This document shows positions 1,492-33,516 of a stretch of DNA of 64,000 nt, piece by piece (positions within the stretch are counted from its first letter, which is position 1; each line of letters starts with the position of its first letter). Source of the DNA: an uncultured Bacilli bacterium (GTDB lineage Bacteria > Bacillota_I > Bacilli_A > RF39 > UBA660). The notes under the pieces were generated by a model. That model did no database searches. It saw nothing but the letters and a program-made list of their open reading frames with translations, and was not told the origin of the DNA. The position numbers and the translations under genes are program-made. The stretch lies in assembly GCA_934162665.1 (NCBI GenBank), contig CAKPJN010000007.1, positions 2,479-66,478 of the forward strand, given 5' to 3'.

Positions 1492-1716
1492 AACAATATC
1501 ACCCTTTCATAATAATGATTATACACCTAATAATAAATATTTTCTACTTTTATAAAACTTGTATTTTAAAAACCATTTTTTAAGGAAATTTGTACAATTT
1601 ACTATAAATTTAACAAAATTCAAACATTTTAATAGCTGAATTTTAAAAATTCCTCGTTTGTCATATAACTTATAATTTGTTAACATCTTAAACATTAAGA
1701 AAAAAGGAGGAATTTT

Positions 1717-3174
1717 ATGAAAAAAATATTAATTTTCTTAATAACTATTTTAAGTATAACATTAATACCTACAAAGAATGTATATGCAACTACTACTAAT
1801 TTTTATGAAGGAGAATATATACCAGGAATATGGATGAATAAAGTTAAAAATGGAACTAAATATTATCAAACAGCTAGATTTTTTAGACAACAAATAACTA
1901 ATAACTTTGCCTACTGTATTGAACCATTTGAAATGTTTAATGAAAATTCAACTTATGAATCAACAATATCTCCATACAATCTAACTAATGAACAAAAACA
2001 AAAAATTTCCTTAATTGCTCATTTCGGTTATGGTTATATAAATCATACAGACATTAAATGGTATGCAATAACACAAATGATGATTTGGAAAGAATCAGAT
2101 CCATCAGGCATATATTACTTTTCTGATAGTCTAAATGGAAACAAAATATCAATATATGAAAGTGAAATGAACGAAATAAATAACCTAATAAATAGTTATT
2201 TAATAACCCCATCAATATCTAATCAAACATATAACATAGTAGAAGATGAAGAATTAAATATAATAGATACCAATAACGCTCTAACAAATTACAAATTAAT
2301 AGATAACCTAAATAATAATATAACAATAATTAACAATACATTAAATATCAAAAATCTAAAAGAAGGCACCTATGATATAACCCTAATAAAAAATGATAAT
2401 ATATTTAATAGACCATTAGTTTTCTATCAAGGAATAAATACTCAAAATTTAGTAGAAGCTGGTGACATAGAAACTAATACAAATCTTAAAATAATAGTAA
2501 ATAAAACAAAATTAGAAATTATAAAAATAGATAGTGATACCAAAACAACAATACCAAGTGGTGAAGGCAAGCTTGATGGCGCAATATACGAGTTACTAAA
2601 TGAAAATAAAGAAAAATTAACTGAACTTACAATTGATAAAGATATGCATAGTAAGATTGAAAACTTAAAATATGGAAAATATTATCTAAAAGAAATAAAA
2701 GCAGGAATCGGTTATGAACTAGATCCAAATATATATGAGTTTACGATTGATAAAGAACATACTAATATTGAAATGATATTAGAAAATAAAATTATAAAAA
2801 AAGAAATAGAACTCATAAAAGAATATGGTAATGGGATAGACTCAAATTACGAAGAAAATATATCATTCAATATATATGATAAAAACAATACCTTAGTAAC
2901 AACTATAACAACAGATAATGAAGGTAAAGCAAGTATAACTCTACCATATGGAAATTATACTATAAAACAAGTTAACACAACACCAGGATACAATTTAACC
3001 GATGATTTAAATATTTCAGTTACAACAAATGAAAAAGAAAGCTATAAATTATATGATTATAAAATAAAAGTGCCTAATACAAGAATAAATAATAAAAATA
3101 AAACTTATTTAATAATACTAGTATTACTACCAATTAGTTTAATAATATATGAAAAGAAAAGAATTAATAATTAG
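1717..3174 (+). CDS. Secreted surface protein with N-terminal thioester-domain-like region, two Cna-B/prealbumin-like repeats and C-terminal membrane anchor
   Basis: Strong RBS AAGGAGG 8 nt upstream and a signal peptide. YCIE and TQMMIW motifs match the [YF]C.[DE] / TQxA.W thioester signatures. Two repeat units (GAIYEL..YGKYYLKE..GYEL and ..YGNYTIKQ..TPGYNL) look like Cna-B folds. The C-terminus is a hydrophobic stretch plus a charged tail (LIILVLLPISLIIYEKKR). Confidence 0.55.
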   Translation: MKKILIFLITILSITLIPTKNVYATTTNFYEGEYIPGIWMNKVKNGTKYYQTARFFRQQITNNFAYCIEPFEMFNENSTYESTISPYNLTNEQKQKISLIAHFGYGYINHTDIKWYAITQMMIWKESDPSGIYYFSDSLNGNKISIYESEMNEINNLINSYLITPSISNQTYNIVEDEELNIIDTNNALTNYKLIDNLNNNITIINNTLNIKNLKEGTYDITLIKNDNIFNRPLVFYQGINTQNLVEAGDIETNTNLKIIVNKTKLEIIKIDSDTKTTIPSGEGKLDGAIYELLNENKEKLTELTIDKDMHSKIENLKYGKYYLKEIKAGIGYELDPNIYEFTIDKEHTNIEMILENKIIKKEIELIKEYGNGIDSNYEENISFNIYDKNNTLVTTITTDNEGKASITLPYGNYTIKQVNTTPGYNLTDDLNISVTTNEKESYKLYDYKIKVPNTRINNKNKTYLIILVLLPISLIIYEKKRINN

Positions 3175-3697
3175 TATTAGTATAATTTTATTATATATAA
3201 TATTATGTAATATAATCTATAATAAAAACTATATAATAAAAAAATATACTACTAATAATAATGAAATAAAAATATCATCTGGAAATAAAATAAATAATGA
3301 AATAATTGGTAAAATTATAATTGACAAGTTAAATATATCAAACAATTTATATAATAAAGAAAGTATTCATAATAATGTTAATGAAAATATTACTATTTTA
3401 AAAGAATCTATATCACCAGATAACATCAATAGTATTATGTATATTGCCGCTCATTCTGGTACAGGAAAATTAGCTTACTTTAAAAATTTAGATAAATTAG
3501 AAATCAATGATCAGATAATTTTAATATATAAAAATAAAAAATACACATATCAAGTATATAAAATCTGGGAAGAAAATAAAAATGGCTATATTCATATAAA
3601 TAGCATAAATGAAAAACAATTGATTTTAACAACATGTAGTCCCAACCATAAAAACAAGCAATTAATAATTAGTAGCATATTAAAAGAGTCAAATTAA
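3149..3697 (+). CDS. Sortase-like transpeptidase (divergent; conserved Arg not evident)
   Basis: N-terminal TM anchor, His motif IAAHSGTG and Cys motif LILTTCSP (TLxTC-like). Overlaps the 3' end of the upstream surface-protein gene, suggesting translational coupling. No Arg follows the Cys, which is atypical. Confidence 0.45.
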   Translation: MKRKELIISISIILLYIILCNIIYNKNYIIKKYTTNNNEIKISSGNKINNEIIGKIIIDKLNISNNLYNKESIHNNVNENITILKESISPDNINSIMYIAAHSGTGKLAYFKNLDKLEINDQIILIYKNKKYTYQVYKIWEENKNGYIHINSINEKQLILTTCSPNHKNKQLIISSILKESN

Positions 3698-3703
3698 TTG
3701 ACT

Positions 3704-4987
3704 CTACTTTTTTGTAGTAATTACTTCTAATGCTTTTTGTAATTGATTATCATTTGAATCAATAGGATTATCCCAATAAGAAGAATTAAGTTCTATAACT
3801 TCATCAGGACTAACACCAACTTCATTAATCCAATTTCCCTTAGGTGTTAACCACTTTTGTACTGTAAATTTTAAACTAGAACCACTTGATAATTCATAAG
3901 CTTGTTGAACTGTACCCTTTCCATATGAATTAACACCCACAATAACACTATCCTTATATGACTCCTTAAAACAAGCAGCCATAATTTCAGAAGCAGAAGC
4001 ACTATTAGAATTTATCAAAACAGCAACCTTATAAGTACGCTTTTCATTAGTCAAAGAATAAACTGCTTCCTTCACACCTTTTGTTTCTAATTGATATAAA
4101 ATTTTATTCTTAGGTAAAAACAAAGATAAAATAGATGTGACCTGATTTAAATGACCACCAGGATTATCACGTAAATCAATCACTAAGGAATCAATTTGCT
4201 TTTTCTCTAAACTTTTAAGTTCTTTGTTAAATTGACTATATGTATTAGCTGCAAAAGTAGAAATAATAATATATCCAACCTTCTGATTATTAACTTCAAA
4301 TATCTTACTAGATACAGACGGAATTTCAATATTATCCCTTACTACTTTAACATCAACTGTATCATCACCACGTATAACAGAAATACTTACTGTTGTGCCT
4401 TTTTTACCTTTAATCATATCTGTAACTTTATTAATATCAAAAGAGCTAACATCTTTACCATCTATTGTTTTAAATATATCTCCAACTTTTAACCCAGCCT
4501 TAACAGCGGGAGATTTTGGAAATAACGCAACAATTTGATTTTTACCATTAATATAAGAAACAGTTGCCCCTATACCTGTATATGATCCATCAACTGTTTG
4601 ATTAAATGTTTCAGTTTCAGAAGAATTCATATAAGATGAATAATTATCACCTAAAGAATTTATCATTCCCTCAATCGCAGCATTTAATAACTCTTTTTTA
4701 TCAACTGATTCATAATAATTATTAACAATATTATTATAGGTAGAAATAAATTCATCTAAATTACCAGACTTATTACTAGATGAAATAATGTGTTTATTAG
4801 GATTATAACTATAAGTAATAACTCCCCCTATTATTCCTCCAAATAATATAGAGATAATAATAATGGCGATAACTTCCGCCATATTAAACCCGGTTTTTCT
4901 CTCAACTATAACTTCTCTTATATCATCTTCTTTTAAAGACTCTTTTTCACATTTCTTAACAGCCTGATTTTTATCTTTATAAGCCAT
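3704..4987 (-). CDS. ctpA: S41 family C-terminal processing peptidase (PDZ domain)
   Basis: Motifs DLRDNPGGHL and the PDZ-like GDIFKTIDGKDV, with an N-terminal TM anchor. Confidence 0.8.
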   Translation of the reverse strand: MAYKDKNQAVKKCEKESLKEDDIREVIVERKTGFNMAEVIAIIIISILFGGIIGGVITYSYNPNKHIISSSNKSGNLDEFISTYNNIVNNYYESVDKKELLNAAIEGMINSLGDNYSSYMNSSETETFNQTVDGSYTGIGATVSYINGKNQIVALFPKSPAVKAGLKVGDIFKTIDGKDVSSFDINKVTDMIKGKKGTTVSISVIRGDDTVDVKVVRDNIEIPSVSSKIFEVNNQKVGYIIISTFAANTYSQFNKELKSLEKKQIDSLVIDLRDNPGGHLNQVTSILSLFLPKNKILYQLETKGVKEAVYSLTNEKRTYKVAVLINSNSASASEIMAACFKESYKDSVIVGVNSYGKGTVQQAYELSSGSSLKFTVQKWLTPKGNWINEVGVSPDEVIELNSSYWDNPIDSNDNQLQKALEVITTKK

Positions 4988-5153: not shown

Positions 5154-5669
5154 CTACTTCAAATAATTTTCTATATCACTTTCTCCCTCTATATAATCAC
5201 TAACTTTTCCTTCTTTAAAATGAATAAGCGTATTATCTTTTACTTTTAAGTCATTAACAGAACTAGGATTAGTATTAGAAGAATCACTAATATATTTTTT
5301 ATTTAATGCACTATTAGTATCTACAATATAAACATTTAAATGACTATCCTTATCTTTATAATTACTAACTAAATTAGTATAACTAGATTTCAAGTCACTA
5401 ATTGAATTATCATAATATAACACTAAATACTCATCACCCATATCAAAACTAGAACTTGCTAAAATAGTTTGATAAGATATAGAAACTTCTCCATTACTAC
5501 TAACATTATTAGAAGTAGTAGTATTCGGTTTATTTAATAAATACACTGTAAGTAAATAAAAAACCACTAATACCACAAGAACAATAACCAAAACTTTTAT
5601 AGTTTTAATAACTTGTTCCCTAAAACTATTATTACTATAATTTTTATTTTTATAAGCTTTGTTTTTCAC
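5154..5669 (-). CDS. Hypothetical single-pass membrane protein
   Basis: ORF with a K/N-rich N-terminus and one TM helix (VLVIVLVVLVVFYLLTVYLL). No recognisable domain. Confidence 0.4.
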   Translation of the reverse strand: MKNKAYKNKNYSNNSFREQVIKTIKVLVIVLVVLVVFYLLTVYLLNKPNTTTSNNVSSNGEVSISYQTILASSSFDMGDEYLVLYYDNSISDLKSSYTNLVSNYKDKDSHLNVYIVDTNSALNKKYISDSSNTNPSSVNDLKVKDNTLIHFKEGKVSDYIEGESDIENYLK

Positions 5670-9696: not shown

Positions 9697-10551
9697 TTAC
9701 ATACTCATACTATTAGCATTTATATTTTCATTAACAGAATTACCATCTTGTAACATCTGATTTAATTCTTCTTTAGTATTATTATAAGCAAGCTTAATAT
9801 TATTCTTAATAATAGAAATTTTCTTCATAGAATTTCTCATAAAATTAGTAGATTTCTTAGTAACAATCATAACATTAGCGCCTTTGAAATCAACATTCTT
9901 TTCTTTCATAGTATTAAATATATTAGCTTGATATTCATATTGTTTTTGATAAAATTTACCTTTTATATCATATATTTTGCCTACAACTTTATCTTTAACT
10001 GAGTCCCCCAAATCACTTTTCAAAACACTATTATCATTAATTTTAGCCTCAGTCATTTCCATAGCTGTTTCTCTTTTAGAAAGCATTTCATTTCTTTTAT
10101 TAGTTGTATTTTGCTTTTTCATTAAAATAACACGTTGTCTTTGTTCCAACTTCACTTCTTTTTGTTGTAACTTTTCTAATTTTTGATACTTACTTTCAAT
10201 TTTTTTATCAATCATATTTTTAAAAACATTAGTTTTAAGTACTTCTTTTTTAGCTTCTAATTCTGTTATTTGTTGTTTTACTTCATCTTGAGTATTTAAA
10301 TTATTATCATATTTTTCATTAACCGACTCTAATTTTTGACTATCTTCTGTAATACCGTTATTTAATTTAAATTCATTAATTTGTTCTAATATTTTAGAAC
10401 GTTGCTTTTCTAAAGAAGAAATCTCTAAATTAATTTTATCGTTAATTTCACCTAATTCTTGATGAAGATTATTTATATTTTTAATTGATTCTTCTATACC
10501 TTTTAAACTATTTAACAAAATTTCTGCTTGAATTTTATTAGCATTATTCAT
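9697..10551 (-). CDS. Coiled-coil protein, function unknown
   Basis: Long heptad-like K/E/Q/L-rich sequence with no catalytic motifs. Confidence 0.4.
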   Translation of the reverse strand: MNNANKIQAEILLNSLKGIEESIKNINNLHQELGEINDKINLEISSLEKQRSKILEQINEFKLNNGITEDSQKLESVNEKYDNNLNTQDEVKQQITELEAKKEVLKTNVFKNMIDKKIESKYQKLEKLQQKEVKLEQRQRVILMKKQNTTNKRNEMLSKRETAMEMTEAKINDNSVLKSDLGDSVKDKVVGKIYDIKGKFYQKQYEYQANIFNTMKEKNVDFKGANVMIVTKKSTNFMRNSMKKISIIKNNIKLAYNNTKEELNQMLQDGNSVNENINANSMSM

Positions 10552-12347: not shown

Positions 12348-13775
12348 TTACTCTTTACCAATATTTTTAATAGCAGGACCTAAAATTATATTTCCATCTA
12401 AATCAAATCTAGAACCATGACAAGGACAATCCCAAGTTTTTTCCTCTCTATTAAAAACAAGACTACATTTCATATGAGGGCAAATCAATTTAACAATGTG
12501 GCGTTCATTATTATCATCTATATAAACGCCATATATAATACCTTTTATTTTAACATAAGAAGGATTATTCTTTTTCCACAAAGCCTGTGCATAAGCTTTT
12601 ACATAATGAAAACTTCCAAGTAAAGAATCAATAAATAACGTAGGATTTTTTCTCTTAGGATCAAATATATTTTTATAAGGGCTATAACCTTTTAATATTA
12701 AATCTGAAATAGTTTTTGCCGCAATAGTCCCATTAGTCATTCCCCACGCATTATAAGCAGTTGCTATATATAGATTCTTATGTATATTCCCAATAAAAGG
12801 CAAATTATCATTAGAGACTATATCTTGATTCATCCACGTATATTCTGGTTCAACTCCAAAATATTTTTTAAAATCTTCTCTACTCTGATTATACATAACT
12901 TTATAATCTATTTTACTAGTCAATCTTTGCTGATTAGAACCATAAATCAAGTAATCCTTATAAAATCTAACAGAATGAAGTTCCTTATCAATATTAACAG
13001 CACTAAAATTACCAATTTTTTCTACTTTAGCAGCATTTACATATTCACGTTTAATATAAGTTTTCAAAGGAATAAAACTAGGTAATAAAAAAAACGGATA
13101 GAAACATGCAATAATTACTTTATTCGCAACAATTATACCCTTATTAGTTTGAACATGATATTTATCATCAACTAATCTAACATCAGTAGCTAAAACTTTT
13201 TCATAAATATTCACACTATCTTCAATTGCTTTTTTCAATCCATCTAAATACTTTAAAGGATTAAAACAATATGTATCACTAACCTTAATACCCTTTTTAA
13301 TTTTAGGATGATCAACATATTTTACATCAATATTCCAAGAAGTTAATAACTTATTTAAATTATTTATCTTAGAAACATCATTATCTAAAGTAGTAAAAAC
13401 TATAGAATCAGTTTTAACTAAATCACAAGATATTTTATTATCAGAAATTATATTTTTAATAATAGATACTGCCTCTACTTGTGAATTTAAATATCTTTTA
13501 GAGATATCTCTACCAAAATTTTTGTCTAACTGATTATAAATATTACCCTGTAAATAAGTAACCTTAGCTGTAGTTTTACTAGTAACTCCGCTACCAATAT
13601 TATCCCTATCTATTAATGTTATGTTTTTTATACTATCACACAAAAAATAAGCAGTAGTTAAACCAGTTATACCACCACCTATTATTAAAACATCAGTATT
13701 AAAATTGTTAGGAATATTTCTAGAAGATTTATGAATATTATTTATCCAAATTGATTTATTTTTTATAAGTATCAC
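12348..13775 (-). CDS. FAD-dependent oxidoreductase fused to C-terminal Rieske [2Fe-2S] domain (YhfW-like)
   Basis: N-terminal dinucleotide motif IIGGGITGLTTAYFL. C-terminal Rieske ligand boxes CPHMKC and CPCHGS. Confidence 0.7.
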   Translation of the reverse strand: MILIKNKSIWINNIHKSSRNIPNNFNTDVLIIGGGITGLTTAYFLCDSIKNITLIDRDNIGSGVTSKTTAKVTYLQGNIYNQLDKNFGRDISKRYLNSQVEAVSIIKNIISDNKISCDLVKTDSIVFTTLDNDVSKINNLNKLLTSWNIDVKYVDHPKIKKGIKVSDTYCFNPLKYLDGLKKAIEDSVNIYEKVLATDVRLVDDKYHVQTNKGIIVANKVIIACFYPFFLLPSFIPLKTYIKREYVNAAKVEKIGNFSAVNIDKELHSVRFYKDYLIYGSNQQRLTSKIDYKVMYNQSREDFKKYFGVEPEYTWMNQDIVSNDNLPFIGNIHKNLYIATAYNAWGMTNGTIAAKTISDLILKGYSPYKNIFDPKRKNPTLFIDSLLGSFHYVKAYAQALWKKNNPSYVKIKGIIYGVYIDDNNERHIVKLICPHMKCSLVFNREEKTWDCPCHGSRFDLDGNIILGPAIKNIGKE

Positions 13776-24831: not shown

Positions 24832-26091
24832 TTATAATTCAATATCATCATCTTTTTTCTTATTTTCTTTATATTTTTTACTAATAGGTAAATCATATAT
24901 TTTCTTATATTCTTTTTCAGTTATTATATTACTTTCTCTTAAATCATCTGTAATATCCTTATATTTACTTTTTAATATATTACCAAATAATCCTTTAACT
25001 CTTTCAGATATAAAATCTACAATTTCATTAACTCTTTGCTTCCAAGATTCTACTTTTGCTTCAAGTTCAATTATTTTTTTATTTAATGTATTTATTGTAT
25101 TTTTTGAAACCATTAACAATCTTTCTTTTTCTTCTAATTTAACTTTTAAATCTTCATTATCATTTGTTAAATTTCTAATAGTATTATGATTATCTTCTAA
25201 ATCTTTTTTTATATTTTCAAGTGATAAATTATAATTATTAATACTTTTAAAGTTTTTATTATTCTTATCAATATCATTTATATACTCTAATAATTTATCT
25301 TTTTTATCATTAGAAATAATTAAGTTGTTGTTTGATAAAGGTTGTTGTTTTAAACTTTCTAATATTTCTTTAACTTCGTTTGATTTCACATTTATCTTAT
25401 CTACATTTTTATTTATTTCAGTTATTTTCTTATGTTGTTTTTTATAATCATTTTTCAACTTATCATAATTTTTCATTTGTCCAACACGATAATCTTGATT
25501 GCTTCCTTGTTCTTTTTCTTTTAATTTAGCATTCAAGCCATAAACTTTATTAAAATCATTTATACAAGATTCTCTAAGTTTATCTTGAATAATTTTTAAT
25601 AATTCTATTGTAAATACATCAGATTTTCCTACTTGTTTATTCATACCTGTTTTACAATTTTCTTTTACTGGAACACCAACTATATGCAAGTGTAGAGAGT
25701 ATTCATCAAAATGGCAAGTCGCATTTGCTACATAGAAGTCTGGAACTATTTCTTTTAAATCTTTAATTAATATCTTATTACTTAAATTTTCAATATAGAT
25801 ATTTGTTTCATAATTAAATGCAAGAAATGTAATACCTTTAATAATTATTCTATGTGGCTCTACATAAGATAAGTTTGTTCTTTCTATTGTTCTAATTGAA
25901 CCTTTTTGTATTTCACATTTAGTATTGCAGAAACTACATACAAATTCTAGTTTCTTTCTTAATGCTTCTTCAATATCAATTTCTTGCTTAATAATATTTA
26001 CCATTAAATCATCCCTTTCTTTTAAACACAACAAAAAATCAATTCCATTTCTAGAATTGATATTTATTAGTAAAGTTGAACTAATGTTCAA
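24832..26091 (-). CDS. MobV-family relaxase / plasmid recombination enzyme (Mob_Pre) with coiled-coil C-terminus
   Basis: HxDE..HxH motif CHFDEYSLHLHIVGVP sits at residues 127-136, the position of MobM motif III. Followed by a long K/E/N-rich coiled-coil. The start codon is TTG 13 bp from the tmRNA 3' end. Confidence 0.6.
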   Translation of the reverse strand: MNISSTLLININSRNGIDFLLCLKERDDLMVNIIKQEIDIEEALRKKLEFVCSFCNTKCEIQKGSIRTIERTNLSYVEPHRIIIKGITFLAFNYETNIYIENLSNKILIKDLKEIVPDFYVANATCHFDEYSLHLHIVGVPVKENCKTGMNKQVGKSDVFTIELLKIIQDKLRESCINDFNKVYGLNAKLKEKEQGSNQDYRVGQMKNYDKLKNDYKKQHKKITEINKNVDKINVKSNEVKEILESLKQQPLSNNNLIISNDKKDKLLEYINDIDKNNKNFKSINNYNLSLENIKKDLEDNHNTIRNLTNDNEDLKVKLEEKERLLMVSKNTINTLNKKIIELEAKVESWKQRVNEIVDFISERVKGLFGNILKSKYKDITDDLRESNIITEKEYKKIYDLPISKKYKENKKKDDDIEL

Positions 26092-27236: not shown

Positions 27237-28433
27237 TCACTCTCCGTTTATACCCCAAACTAATTCAGGATATCTTTCACTAACAACAGCCTTATATTTT
27301 GTATAATAGTTCATATAATTAGGTAAAATAGTGTTATTTAATTGACTATATGGATATACTTTAAAGTTACGCTTACCACCTGCTGATGATTTTGTATATA
27401 AAAGTTCAGCTTTTGGTGACTCAATACTAATTGTAACATTATCATCAATATCTACATTCTTTTTAATCGTCAACTCCATCATCAAACCAGTTAACCTTTC
27501 AATACCAACCTGATCAGATATGTAATTACCTAAAGAATATATTACAAAAGTTCTACCATTATTAATATATTCAACAGGCTCTACAACGTGTGGATGAGAA
27601 CCTATAATAATATCAACACCTAAATTAGATAAGTAATTAGCTATATTAGTTTGAGACTCTGATACTCCTAATGAATATTCATTACCCCAATGCATTGCGA
27701 CAATAACAACATCTACCTTGTCTCTAACTTTTTCTATATCAGCCTTTGCTTTTTCATCAGAATAAACATTATTTAAATATTCTTTACCAACAGGTGTTTC
27801 AAGTCCATTAGTCCATGTAGTATAAGAGAAAAAAGCATAACTAATATTATTAATTTCATATATATTAATCTTATCTCTTTCTTCCTGTGAAGAATATTGT
27901 CCAGCTGTAACAACTCCTGTCTTAGCTTTCCAATAATTAACAGAATTAAGTACTCCTTGTTCACCCTTATCCATCGTATGATTAGTCGCAAGTGATACTA
28001 AATTAAAACCAGAGTCTATAAAAGCATCTCCCACTTCATTAGGAGAATTAAATCTAGGATAGTTAGAATATCCAAAATTAGCTCCTCCTAAAATGGTTTC
28101 TTGATTATAATATACTAAATCATATTTAGAAGTAATTGGCTTAGTCAACTCAAGCATTGGTTTAAAATCATATGTCCCATCACTTTTCTTAGCATCATAG
28201 AAAAGAGAACTGTGTATTAATGCATCTCCTACCATTATCATCCTAGTGCTATATTCCTTAGGTTGTTTTTTTTCTTTATAAACCTTAGGAGTAGGACCAT
28301 TTTTATTATCATTAAGAGAAAAATTAGTAGCTTGTAAATAAATACCTACATCGATTAATAATATAGCAAATAAGAATAATACTAATACTATCCTTGTACT
28401 TTTTTTTGCTTTTCTAACTTTTCTCTTTTTCAT
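27237..28433 (-). CDS. CapA/PgsA-family metallophosphoesterase-like membrane-anchored protein
   Basis: N-terminal TM; MVGDALIH and GSHPHV motifs of the CapA family. Confidence 0.55.
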   Translation of the reverse strand: MKKRKVRKAKKSTRIVLVLFLFAILLIDVGIYLQATNFSLNDNKNGPTPKVYKEKKQPKEYSTRMIMVGDALIHSSLFYDAKKSDGTYDFKPMLELTKPITSKYDLVYYNQETILGGANFGYSNYPRFNSPNEVGDAFIDSGFNLVSLATNHTMDKGEQGVLNSVNYWKAKTGVVTAGQYSSQEERDKINIYEINNISYAFFSYTTWTNGLETPVGKEYLNNVYSDEKAKADIEKVRDKVDVVIVAMHWGNEYSLGVSESQTNIANYLSNLGVDIIIGSHPHVVEPVEYINNGRTFVIYSLGNYISDQVGIERLTGLMMELTIKKNVDIDDNVTISIESPKAELLYTKSSAGGKRNFKVYPYSQLNNTILPNYMNYYTKYKAVVSERYPELVWGINGE

Positions 28434-30923: not shown

Positions 30924-32150
30924 CTATATATTTAATTCATCTTCAATTCTCATTAATTGATTATACTTACAAATTCTATCAGTTCTAGACATTGAACCAG
31001 TTTTGATTTGACCTAAATCAAGACCAACGGCTAAATCAGCAATTGTAGTATCTTCTGTTTCACCACTTCTATGAGAAATTACAGTTTTATAACCATGACT
31101 TTTAGCAAGTTCAATAGTCTCTAATGTCTCAGTAATTGTACCAATTTGATTAACTTTTAATAAGATTGCATTACCAGCTTTCATATCAATTCCCTTTTGT
31201 AAACATTCTTTATTCGTTACAAATAAGTCATCACCAACTAATTGAACCTTATCTCCAATTTCTAGAGTAACTTTAGAAAATCCTTCCCAGTCATTTTCAT
31301 CAACAGGATCCTCTATAGAAATAATTGGATAAGTATTAATTAATTCTTTATAATAATCAATTAATTCATCTGTTGTTAAAACTCGGTTTTCACCTTTAAG
31401 TTCATATTTACCATCATTATAAAATTCTGATGCAGCTACATCAATTGCATAACACACATCTTTACCAGGTACATAACCAGCTCTTTCCACAGCTTCTGTG
31501 ATTAATTGAAATCCTTCTTTATTACTTTTTAAATCAGGAGCAAAACCACCTTCATCTCCTACACCAGTTGCATAACCCTTTTCATTTAATACTTTTCTTA
31601 AACTATGAAAAATCTCTGCTCCTACTCTTACACGCTCACGAATACTATCACGTTGTGGAATAATCATATATTCTTGAAAATCAAGACTATTATCAGCATG
31701 AGCTCCACCATTTATAATATTCATCATTGGAACTGGTAAAGTCTTCCCATCACCAATATATTTATAAAGTTCTAAACCCTTACTTTTAGCAGCAGCTTTC
31801 ATTACAGCCATTGAAATACCTAAAATAGCATTTGCCCCATATTTACTTTTTGTCTTAGTACCATCAGCTTGTATCATAGCGTAGTCAACCGCTTTTTGAT
31901 CAAAAGCATCCATTCCAACAACAATATCTTTTAAAGGACCATTAACATTTTTTAAAGCATTCAATACACCTTTACCATTAAAACGACTTCCACCATCACG
32001 CATTTCTAAAGCTTCTCTTTCACCAGTTGATGCTCCGCTTGGCACTGCAGCACGTCCCATAGTTCCATCTTCTAAATAAATATCAACTTCTACTGTTGGA
32101 TTACCTCTAGAATCTAATATTTCACGTCCAATTACATTATTTATTTTCAT
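30924..32150 (-). CDS. eno: Enolase (phosphopyruvate hydratase)
   Basis: Canonical enolase sequence ([15 protein letters not shown]...SHRSGETED). Confidence 0.9.
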
Positions 32151-33516
32151 CTTTTCTTGCCTCCATATTTAAAACATAATTTTTAAATTCTGTACCTCTT
32201 ATTTCACATTCCTTATATTGATCCCATGATGCAGATGCAGGTGAAAGTAAAACAACATCACCACTATCAGAAACATCAACACATTTATCAAATCCATCTT
32301 TTAAAAACTCATAAATAAACGTTGGAATATTAAGAGCTTTTCCAAATTCAAATACTCTATTACGACATTGACCAATCCCAATAATTGTCTTAACATTTTT
32401 CATAAAAGGAGTCAACTCATAAAAATCTTGTCCACGTTCTAAACCACCTAATATTAAAACAATTGGATCCTTAAATGAAGACAAAGCAATTTGTGTACAT
32501 TTAATATTAGTAGCTTCTGTATCATTATAAAATTTAACACCATTAACAGTATCAACATATTCAAGTCTATGTTCAACACCCCTAAAATTCTTTATAATAT
32601 CGACAATTATATCATTTGAAACATCTAATTCCTTACATACCATAATAGCGGCCATACAATTTTCTATATTATGACTACCAGCTATAAATATATCATCTAT
32701 ATCAATAACTTTCTCATCATAATAGTAAATAGCCTCATCCTTTAAATAACAACCATTAATTTCCTTCTTACTAGAAAAATACTTTGTTCTAGATTTAATA
32801 GACTTGCTAGACTCTACTACATCATCATTTTCAATGTTCAAAATAGCTAAATCATCTGCAGTTTGATTCTTAAACAACTTACATTTAACTCTCTTATAAT
32901 TATCATAACTTTTCAAAAAATCAATATGAGCTGGACTTAAATTGGTCATAACCGCAATATTAGGCTTAAACTTATCAAAATTTTCAAGTTGTTGACAAGA
33001 AACTTCCATAACAATAATATCATTAGATTTTAACTCATCTAAAATACTACAAAATGGATAACCAATATTACCAGCTAAATGAACTCTTTCTCCAAATGCT
33101 TTTTTCAAAATATTATAAGTAAGTGTTGTTGTAGTTGTTTTTCCATTAGTACCAGTAATTCCAATCAAAAACACATCATCTGGTAATAAACGAAATGCCA
33201 TCTCTGCCTCATTAATAACCTCTATTCCTAAATCTCTTGCCATCAACACATATTTATGATCAATTGGAACCCCTGGATTTTTAATCAAATAATTAAATGT
33301 ATTATCTAACAAATTATCAGGATGTTCTCCAAATATAAGCTTAACACCCAATTCTCTTAACTCTTTAATTTGAGCAGCATCAAGCTTGCTTTCTTCTTTA
33401 CCATCATTTAATACTACTTCATTACCCCTTTTTACTAAATATTTTGCAGCTGCATACCCGCTTCTAGCCATCCCTAAAATCAAAACTTTTTTATTTTCAA
33501 ACATTATTATCACCAA
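32137..33516 (-). CDS. murD: UDP-N-acetylmuramoylalanine--D-glutamate ligase MurD
   Basis: Mur ligase P-loop [13 protein letters not shown]-terminal Rossmann [12 protein letters not shown]. The likely start is the internal Met (MFENKK). Confidence 0.8.

Follow-up and report, generated by a model that had tools for sequence, protein, structure and literature searches.

The locus described here lies in a 64,000-nt stretch of contig CAKPJN010000007.1 (positions 2,479 to 66,478 of the forward strand, assembly GCA_934162665.1) from an uncultured Bacilli bacterium of the GTDB lineage RF39, UBA660. We call this whole stretch the window. Its G+C content is about 25%, most of its other coding lies on the minus strand, and its plus strand carries two overlapping open reading frames (ORFs). 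The first (1717..3174) encodes a 485-aa adhesin in which a signal peptide is followed by a class II thioester domain (TED), two CnaB/SpaA domains and a VPNTR sorting signal. The second (3149..3697) encodes a sortase of 182 aa, whose N-terminal membrane anchor is encoded by nt 3161-3220 and whose catalytic domain spans residues ~50-182. Judging by their sequences and layout, the two genes form an operon that pairs a covalent-type surface adhesin with its own, presumably anchoring, sortase.

A strong Shine-Dalgarno sequence (AAGGAGGA, 1704..1711, plus strand), read directly from the DNA, stands 5-6 nt 5' of the adhesin ATG. Further upstream, TTGTCA-17-TAACAT with an upstream TG (1658..1686, plus strand) is at most a weak candidate promoter, as such sites are no commoner in the region than in shuffled sequence. 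The sortase ORF starts 26 nt before the adhesin stop codon, so that the genes overlap by 26 nt, and in most species the overlap is of 4 or 7 nt. No recognisable Shine-Dalgarno precedes the sortase ATG (nt 3149), which falls within the codons of the adhesin tail. Since the sortase starts inside the adhesin tail without such a site, and since the genes overlap, the arrangement suggests translational coupling of the pair, possibly with a fixed enzyme-to-substrate ratio. At the other end, a terminator-like hairpin readable on both strands (3685..3705) covers both the stop codon of the sortase and the point where the convergent S41 peptidase gene ends. Three terminator-like sites were found, against 0.2 expected in shuffles.

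The adhesin begins with a Sec signal peptide (MKKILIFLITILSITLIPTKNVYA, residues 1-24, 1717..1788), whose Ala24 is invariant in the family and whose residues 2-16 form a helix in the model. It continues, on the same strand, with the class II TED, which consists of a thioester fold and an extra beta-sandwich (residues ~25-262, 1789..2502; Pfam, profile and Foldseek), with CnaB/SpaA domain 1 (residues ~263-358, 2503..2790; Pfam SpaA at 266-358) and with CnaB/SpaA domain 2 (residues ~359-449, 2791..3063; Pfam, profile and model). The Pfam matches are to TED (E=1.4e-10) and, in two copies, to SpaA, a CnaB-type prealbumin fold (E=1.6e-23). A profile of 99 adhesin homologues, searched against the PDB, retrieved the Bacillus anthracis TIE protein 6fwv (E=6e-33) and SaTIE-TED 6fx6 (E=1.4e-15, positions 53-275). 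The structure predicted with AlphaFold2 (AF2) has a predicted local distance difference test score (pLDDT) of 91.8; Foldseek places 6fwv at the top of its matches (480 columns, E=2e-25) and gives 6fx6 a TMt of 0.67. Class II TEDs have an additional beta-sandwich (PMC8092201), and the beta-rich residues ~171-262 of the model are consistent with it.

In the profile alignment, AYC67IEP and ITQ120MMIW stand opposite FCIEP and ATQMLIW of SaTIE 6fx6. Five residues are invariant among the 99 sequences: C67, Q120, W124, P453 and T455. Cys67 (in AYCIEP, nt 1915-1917, plus strand), the putative thioester Cys, is also the sole Cys of the adhesin, and its putative partner is Gln120 (in ITQMMIW, nt 2074-2076, plus strand). 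We infer that the two form a thioester. An earlier note on this DNA, made from the letters alone, had read YCIE and TQMMIW as thioester signatures and had also named Cna-B-type repeats; the Pfam TED match, the alignment to the SaTIE motifs, the invariance of C67 and Q120 and the two SpaA/CnaB domains agree with both claims. Sequence and model together thus identify the product of ORF 1717-3174 as a predicted secreted class II TED ('TIE') adhesin with two CnaB/SpaA domains.

The CnaB prealbumin-like fold is recovered in both stalk domains by Pfam, profile and Foldseek. In domain 1, K270 and E326 are invariant in the family alignment and N357 nearly so, and these three residues are candidates for an isopeptide triad. 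In domain 2, K368, E379 and Q418 are invariant and D447 nearly so. This second domain has Y-x-I-K-Q, with the invariant Gln418 (2968-2970), where domain 1 has Y-x-L-K-E, with Glu326 (2692-2694); the invariant E379 and the nearly invariant D447 lie near Gln418. With Gln in place of the conserved Glu, domain 2 may form its isopeptide differently or not at all.

The protein resembles the TIE adhesins BaTIE (6FWV), SaTIE (6FX6) and pLS20 TIE (PMC8092201) in its signal peptide, its TED with extra beta-sandwich, its xCIEP and TQxxIW motifs and its CnaB stalk. It differs from them in being far more compact, as its 485 aa hold only two CnaB domains, in being chromosomal and syntenic throughout its lineage rather than carried by a mobile element, and in its predicted anchoring via VPNT-x and a private sortase. 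Among the known proteins, BaTIE, SaTIE and EfmTIE86 are reported to be attached by sortases, whereas TIEpLS20 is described as devoid of any sorting signal (PMC8092201).

The second ORF matches the Pfam Sortase family (E=3.9e-14). Three motifs on the plus strand mark its active site. AAHSG (3446..3460) contains His102 (nt 3452-3454), the catalytic His by homology, and Ala100, two residues before it (His-2), which co-varies with the P1 residue of the substrate. LILTTCSP (3620..3643) contains Cys163 (nt 3635-3637), the predicted nucleophile, preceded by the invariant Thr162. Finally, KQLII (3656..3670), at the start of beta8, contains the invariant Gln171 (nt 3659-3661), which falls at the canonical Arg position or one past it. 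The AF2 model (pLDDT 87, and >90 over the catalytic domain) has a full barrel, with beta7 at 157-163 and beta8 at 170-181. Foldseek matches ~133 of its residues, at a root-mean-square deviation of 2.6 Å and a probability of 1.00, to class C and A sortases (3tbe, 4d7w, 7d6t); the top matches are of class C and the class A scores are nearly equal. The SrtA of Staphylococcus aureus has 22 residues between its Cys and its end. The present enzyme has 19 past Cys163 and a complete beta8, so its C-terminus is of ordinary length, and we excluded a truncation on these grounds.

Sortases are textbook Cys-His-Arg enzymes. This triad has even been called ubiquitous among them (PMC9520033). The sole Arg of the 182-aa sortase is R3, in the cytoplasmic N-terminus; the catalytic domain has none, and the canonical catalytic Arg of beta8 was not found in it. 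The family is large, with 493 homologues among 90% identity clusters and, among 50% identity clusters, 3344 matches at E<1e-3, 1096 at E<1e-10 and 291 at E<1e-30. In 87 aligned sortases, H102, S103, G104, Q157, L158, L160, T161, T162, C163, Q171 and L172 are invariant, at an overall identity of ~50% among 87 or more aligned sequences. An Arg occurs up to 14 residues past the Cys in only 2 of the 87, in both cases in the loop. Among the best 150 cluster representatives that reach beta8, the pattern is TC-x(5-7)-Q-[LIV], with Y or N in place of Q in a few and R in none. Curated models do not place the enzyme in any class: it passes the generic sortase model TIGR01076 (40.1 vs a cut-off of 39.35), and the NCBIfam class models score below their cut-offs (class C 46.8 vs 160, class D 45.5 vs 165, SrtD 46.6 vs 140, class E 30.4 vs 160, class GN 19.3 vs 158), those of classes A, B and F being absent among the matches of that search. 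Hence, by sequence and model, the sortase appears intact, conserved and under selection, and yet devoid of the catalytic Arg.

One cluster representative (P0262, 623 aa) has the adhesin C-terminus (DYKIDVPNTSKNSLIKDLLSFIKNIFKK) fused in frame to a sortase domain that lacks its own membrane anchor. It could be either a natural fusion or an artefact of assembly or frameshift in overlapping genes.

A species scan, with one genome per species, revealed the sortase in 171 species genomes, all of them uncultured gut metagenome-assembled genomes (MAGs) labelled Bacilli, Tenericutes, Mollicutes or Erysipelotrichaceae, Candidatus Faecimonas among them. We retrieved 80 sortase loci for neighbourhood analysis. 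In 78 of these a TED adhesin lies immediately upstream on the same strand, with overlaps mostly of 4-56 nt; of the other two loci, one is at a contig end and one has no callable sortase ORF. The pair occupies the same slot in ~72-75 of 79 loci, between the gene of formate-tetrahydrofolate ligase (FTHFS) and the S41 peptidase (CtpB)/YdcC/YbbR/CdaA genes, which places it in the core chromosome and not in a mobile element. From this distribution the adhesin-sortase pair appears to be a lineage-wide, vertically inherited unit. The genes of two distant members of the sortase family (P0343 and P0386) are likewise overlapped by those of TED/SpaA adhesins. One of these adhesins has 1168 aa, and both end in EVPNT-x, a transmembrane segment and a KK-rich tail. 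No other substrate was found within the window or among the 865 ORFs of the flanking loci.

We also considered an adhesin of a mobile or conjugative element, like the pLS20 TIE, and excluded it given the conserved chromosomal slot. In a search of plasmids, the matches were limited to remote class D sortases of Bacillus, with 38% identity across 37% of the query.

These data bear on whether the sortase could be a decayed, catalytically dead relic, with the adhesin merely held in the membrane by its C-terminal helix. Such a reading would account for a catalytic domain that lacks Arg and for NCBIfam class scores far below the cut-offs (~46 bits vs 140-165). However, the reading frame is intact and the fold complete; His, Thr-Thr-Cys and Gln-Leu are invariant in at least 87 sequences that share ~50% overall identity; 78 of the 80 species loci keep the gene beside its substrate; diverged cluster representatives number in the hundreds; and residues adjacent to the active site co-vary with the signal, as detailed below. 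We thus give a dead relic a nearly negligible probability. The earlier note had seen the sortase His and TLxTC-like motifs in the overlapping downstream gene and the lack of a conserved Arg past the Cys, and it had left the choice between a non-canonical sortase-substrate pair and a decayed sortase. Its observations stand: the motifs are AAH102SG and LILTTC163SP, searches with hidden Markov models for TED, Cna_B and sortase all matched, with the class-specific sortase models alone not reached, and the predicted barrel is complete. Its description of the sortase as minimal is only partly apt, as the catalytic domain has the normal size of a class A-like barrel and the C-terminus is normal. Of its two alternatives, conservation and linkage retain the non-canonical pair, whereas decay is excluded by the fold, by the invariant His, Cys and Gln171, by the linkage and by the 493 homologues. 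Absent from the note were the invariant Gln, the VPNT-x signal that runs through the family and leaves its fifth position free, and the co-variation of sortase and signal.

The adhesin C-terminus reads DYKIKVPNTR-INNKNKT-YLIILVLLPISLIIY-EKKRINN, and the sorting-signal peptide stretch is DYKIKVPNTRINN. The motif VPNTR (residues 452-456, 3070..3084, plus strand) begins three residues past the last beta strand, and the directly preceding DYKIK is also conserved. It is followed by the hydrophobic segment YLIILVLLPISLIIY and the charged tail EKKRINN (3106..3171, plus strand), recognised in the sequence and modelled as a helix at 460-484. The model puts the motif in a linker of low confidence (residues 451-460, pLDDT ~58) between the CnaB strand 441-449 and this helix. 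LPXTG was not found in the adhesin; the transmembrane segment, the charged tail and VPNTR as the nearest candidate motif, as first listed from the letters, are all there. Cleavage is predicted after Thr455, between Thr455 and Arg456.

A [VI]P[NDEY]T ending is present in 77 of the 78 adhesins of the orthologous loci (VPNT 55, VPDT 16, IPNT 3, VPET 1, IPDT 1 and IPYT 1). The residue that follows the Thr varies widely (H25, K20, N7, S7, R6, Y6, E2, and one each of G, A, F and Q), and the fifth position of the motif (P1') thus appears free, with Gly in 1 of 77. The window adhesin, with its motif, hydrophobic segment and charged tail in succession, has the most classical layout among the orthologues.

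Two observations concern the diversity of these ends. In 25 of the 77 orthologous adhesins (among them those of loci L024, L025, L035-L037 and L056-L058), the protein ends in a Cys after a short hydrophobic tail (LLLIIC, ILC) without basic residues. In addition, two metagenome loci with Tyr-variant sortases (L102 and L103) have the signals TFNT-S and VFNA-S, which lack the Pro. The motif Pro is therefore not absolute in the Tyr-variant clade.

To compare enzyme and signal, we assembled 97 distinct pairs (96 from loci and that of the window), adding the rare sortases with Tyr or Phe at residue 171 via contig look-ups and a metagenome scan. Sortase residue 171 and signal position 4 combine as Q/T in 83 pairs, N/T in 1, Y/A in 11, F/A in 1 and Y/T in 1; the A-type signals include EVPNA-G, EVPNA-Y and EVPNA-S. 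We then took as discriminating those sortase columns that differ between the two groups while being conserved at 90% or more within the T-type group and at 80% or more within the A-type group. Only two columns qualify: 171 (Q vs Y/F) and 100, the His-2 position (A vs G). In the SrtA of Streptococcus pyogenes (SpySrtA), the His-2 residue is A140, and the P1 Thr packs against it (PMC9520033). Positions 100 and 171 are thus where one would expect a P1 pocket to vary, which supports VPNT/VPNA as the recognition motif, read by the adjacent sortase, and a residue 171 that faces the active site.

The co-variation also bears on the possibility that VPNT is a structural part of the last CnaB domain and no sorting signal, the sortase acting on proteins encoded elsewhere. 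The motif does begin only three residues past the last strand, and the conservation extends upstream into DYKIK. Against this, the motif sits in the low-confidence linker outside the domain, a change of its fourth residue from T to A is accompanied by changes at sortase residues 100 and 171, the overlapping genes imply translational coupling, and the window and flanking loci hold no other candidate substrate. We find this possibility very improbable. Instead, we consider it likely, from conservation, linkage and models, that the locus encodes a functional, dedicated, non-canonical sortase-substrate pair.

Among known enzymes, those of class D and of classes C and A (PF04203, MEROPS C60; e.g., B. 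anthracis SrtD 2LN7, Clostridium perfringens SrtD 4D70 and Streptococcus agalactiae SrtC1 4D7W) share with the present sortase the eight-stranded barrel and the N-terminal membrane anchor, the His on beta4, the TLxTC-type Cys on beta7 with a Thr before it, the short beta7/beta8 loop and a gene that adjoins a substrate with a C-terminal signal. In contrast to them, the present enzyme has no Arg in its catalytic domain, an invariant Gln at the start of beta8 and the His motif AAHSG. Its signal is [VI]P[ND]T-x (VPNA-x in a sub-clade) instead of LPXTG, LPNTA or LPXTA, without Gly and without a fixed P1'. Unlike class C sortases, it has no N-terminal lid (DPW, DPF or DPY) over the active site: in the model, the residues from the anchor to beta1 (30-48) are few and disordered.

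This last difference matters for another reading, in which the enzyme is a class C-like pilus polymerase that would join adhesin to adhesin, or to a pilin encoded elsewhere, via a Lys side chain and not via lipid II. Pilus tip proteins include TED adhesins such as Cpa, and pilins with V at the first motif position occur. The top Foldseek matches are class C sortases, and the sorting motif adjoins a CnaB domain, an arrangement also seen in pilins. On the other side, besides the missing lid between membrane anchor and beta1, the class A Foldseek scores almost equal those of class C, the class C NCBIfam model gives 46.8 bits for a cut-off of 160, the adhesin contains no YPKN-type pilin motif ([YFW]PK[NDGST]), and no pilin or second substrate gene was found in the 64 kb of the window or in 80 flanking regions of 10 kb. 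We regard a pilus polymerase as quite improbable.

From the operon linkage and the enzyme-signal co-variation we infer a transpeptidase activity on the C-terminal signal, and with it a cleavage site, an acceptor and a course of events past export that may run as follows. The adhesin would leave the cytoplasm via Sec and stay in the membrane through its hydrophobic C-terminal segment. The co-translated, membrane-anchored sortase would recognise VPNT past the last CnaB strand, where Cys163, helped by His102, would attack the carbonyl of Thr455 and cut between Thr455 and Arg456. Gln171 on beta8 and Ala100 at His-2 would shape the site of the P1 Thr with no canonical Arg, and the hydroxyl of Thr162 together with backbone amides would form the oxyanion hole. 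An amine would then resolve the acyl-enzyme, the likeliest acceptor being the amine of lipid II's meso-diaminopimelic acid (m-DAP); this would link the adhesin to peptidoglycan. At the surface, the two CnaB domains would hold out the class II TED, and the Cys67-Gln120 thioester could react with an amine of a host or microbial target to give a covalent amide.

We propose lipid II m-DAP as the acceptor because the window encodes a MurD-like Mur ligase (32137-33516, minus strand) and because walls of m-DAP peptidoglycan are predicted for most RF39-type lineages (PMC10868615). A PGA_cap protein (CapA-type, poly-gamma-glutamate capsule synthesis family; 27237-28433, minus strand) also bears on the envelope type. 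On balance, we lean slightly towards peptidoglycan as the acceptor.

Several points weigh against the scheme as a whole. Beta8 can be aligned in two registers, one residue apart: in the BLASTP alignment to the Bacillus plasmid class D sortase, as in the HMMER alignment to C. perfringens SrtD 4d70, it is K170 and not Q171 that stands opposite the Arg. R216A and R197 mutants of canonical sortases are described as essentially inactive (PMC9520033; Marraffini 2004, as cited in PMC11231552), so that we assume activity without Arg here on grounds of conservation. A single switch, or a few, may underlie the Tyr/Ala clade, in which case the counts of pairs are not independent events. The tails past the Thr are short (16-31 aa, median 19) and have a basic C-terminal end in only 19 of the 77 orthologues, and such short, mostly non-basic tails are unlike classical cell-wall sorting signals. 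Finally, some related lineages lack peptidoglycan, and related orders have incomplete pathways for it (PMC10868615).

The last two points would suit an Arg-less enzyme that is mainly a releasing hydrolase, or that transfers the adhesin to an acceptor other than peptidoglycan, such as the amine of a membrane or wall glycopolymer, as might befit a lineage that is reducing its wall. In another transpeptidase fold, the LD-transpeptidase homologue DpaA is reported to detach Braun's lipoprotein from peptidoglycan. However, the MurD-like ligase and the mostly walled predictions for RF39-type genomes speak for a wall, a CnaB-stalked adhesin makes most sense when tethered to the cell, and the window adhesin retains the classical tripartite topology of a sorting signal. 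Release or an unusual acceptor therefore seems unlikely to us, and anchoring to peptidoglycan by a dedicated transpeptidase is the reading we retain.

As for the register, alignments made with hhalign to S. aureus SrtA and to the Bacillus class D sortase end before beta8. Canonical sortases have the Arg followed by three hydrophobic residues and a polar one (RLLVR, RIIVK, RYIIE), a pattern that Q171-L-I-I-N fits, and in S. pyogenes SrtA the spacing from C208 to R216 is C+8, as it is here from Cys163 to Gln171. Position 170 (K56, Y20, T9 and M2 in the 87 members) appears too variable for a catalytic role. The residue pattern and the co-variation thus favour Q171 as the counterpart of the Arg; in either register, the aligned sequences lack the Cys-His-Arg triad.

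Whether the sortase Arg stabilises the oxyanion or positions the substrate is debated (PMC9520033). In recent structures it contacts the P4 and P3 carbonyls and not the oxyanion, for which the Thr before the Cys and backbone amides have been proposed as the hole, and a laboratory-evolved SrtA in which the Arg became Ser is still an efficient transpeptidase (PMC9520033). Given these findings, and with T162 invariant here, catalysis without Arg is plausible. The LMVGG-specific S. aureus SrtA that carries this change is a close parallel, being Arg-less with an altered recognition motif (PMC9520033); it is an engineered and heavily mutated enzyme, whereas the present clade is natural, apparently ancient and widespread, and has Gln (or Tyr, Phe or Asn) in that place. 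We accordingly put forward a broader proposal, tentatively and at somewhat less than even confidence: that these enzymes may constitute a natural, ancient class of sortases that perform transpeptidation without Arg, in which the residue at the start of beta8 (Gln or Tyr/Phe) and that at His-2 (Ala or Gly) would set P1 (Thr in VPNT, Ala in VPNA) and leave P1' unconstrained.

The components of the system, namely the sortase, the class II TED adhesin and the CnaB domains, are known. Their combination, a natural and widespread clade of Arg-less sortases with an invariant Gln, a single private substrate, a [VI]P[ND]T-x signal and a specificity switch, appears undescribed. The curated class models do not capture the clade, and searches of full-text literature returned nothing that joins 'sortase' with 'VPNT', nothing on natural Arg-less sortases and nothing that joins sortase, Tenericutes and a sorting motif. 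A large natural clade without the Arg, with a changed motif and two co-varying positions, makes the role of this residue testable with natural proteins. If the proposal holds, it would provide a natural answer to whether the sortase Arg catalyses or only positions the substrate, as well as an orthogonal pair of ligation enzyme and tag that is independent of Gly, since VPNT-x needs none. In biological terms, the locus appears to be a lineage-wide core element for a covalent adhesin in abundant, uncultured gut Bacilli with reduced genomes (the RF39-like 'Tenericutes' MAGs), and as such is a candidate route for their attachment to host or partner surfaces. At present, annotation pipelines give the adhesin and the sortase only generic names.

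A few other genes of the window deserve mention. Three conserved ORFs have no Pfam family in our Pfam scan (5154-5669, 9697-10551 and 24832-26091, all on the minus strand). One of them, for a membrane protein of 171 aa, shows synteny with the S41 peptidase/YdcC/YbbR/CdaA genes in 70 of 79 loci. Finally, a 475-aa protein (12348-13775, minus strand) carries a flavin adenine dinucleotide (FAD)-dependent oxidoreductase domain (DAO) and, at its C-terminus, a Rieske [2Fe-2S] domain, which is an unusual combination in a gut anaerobe with a reduced genome.

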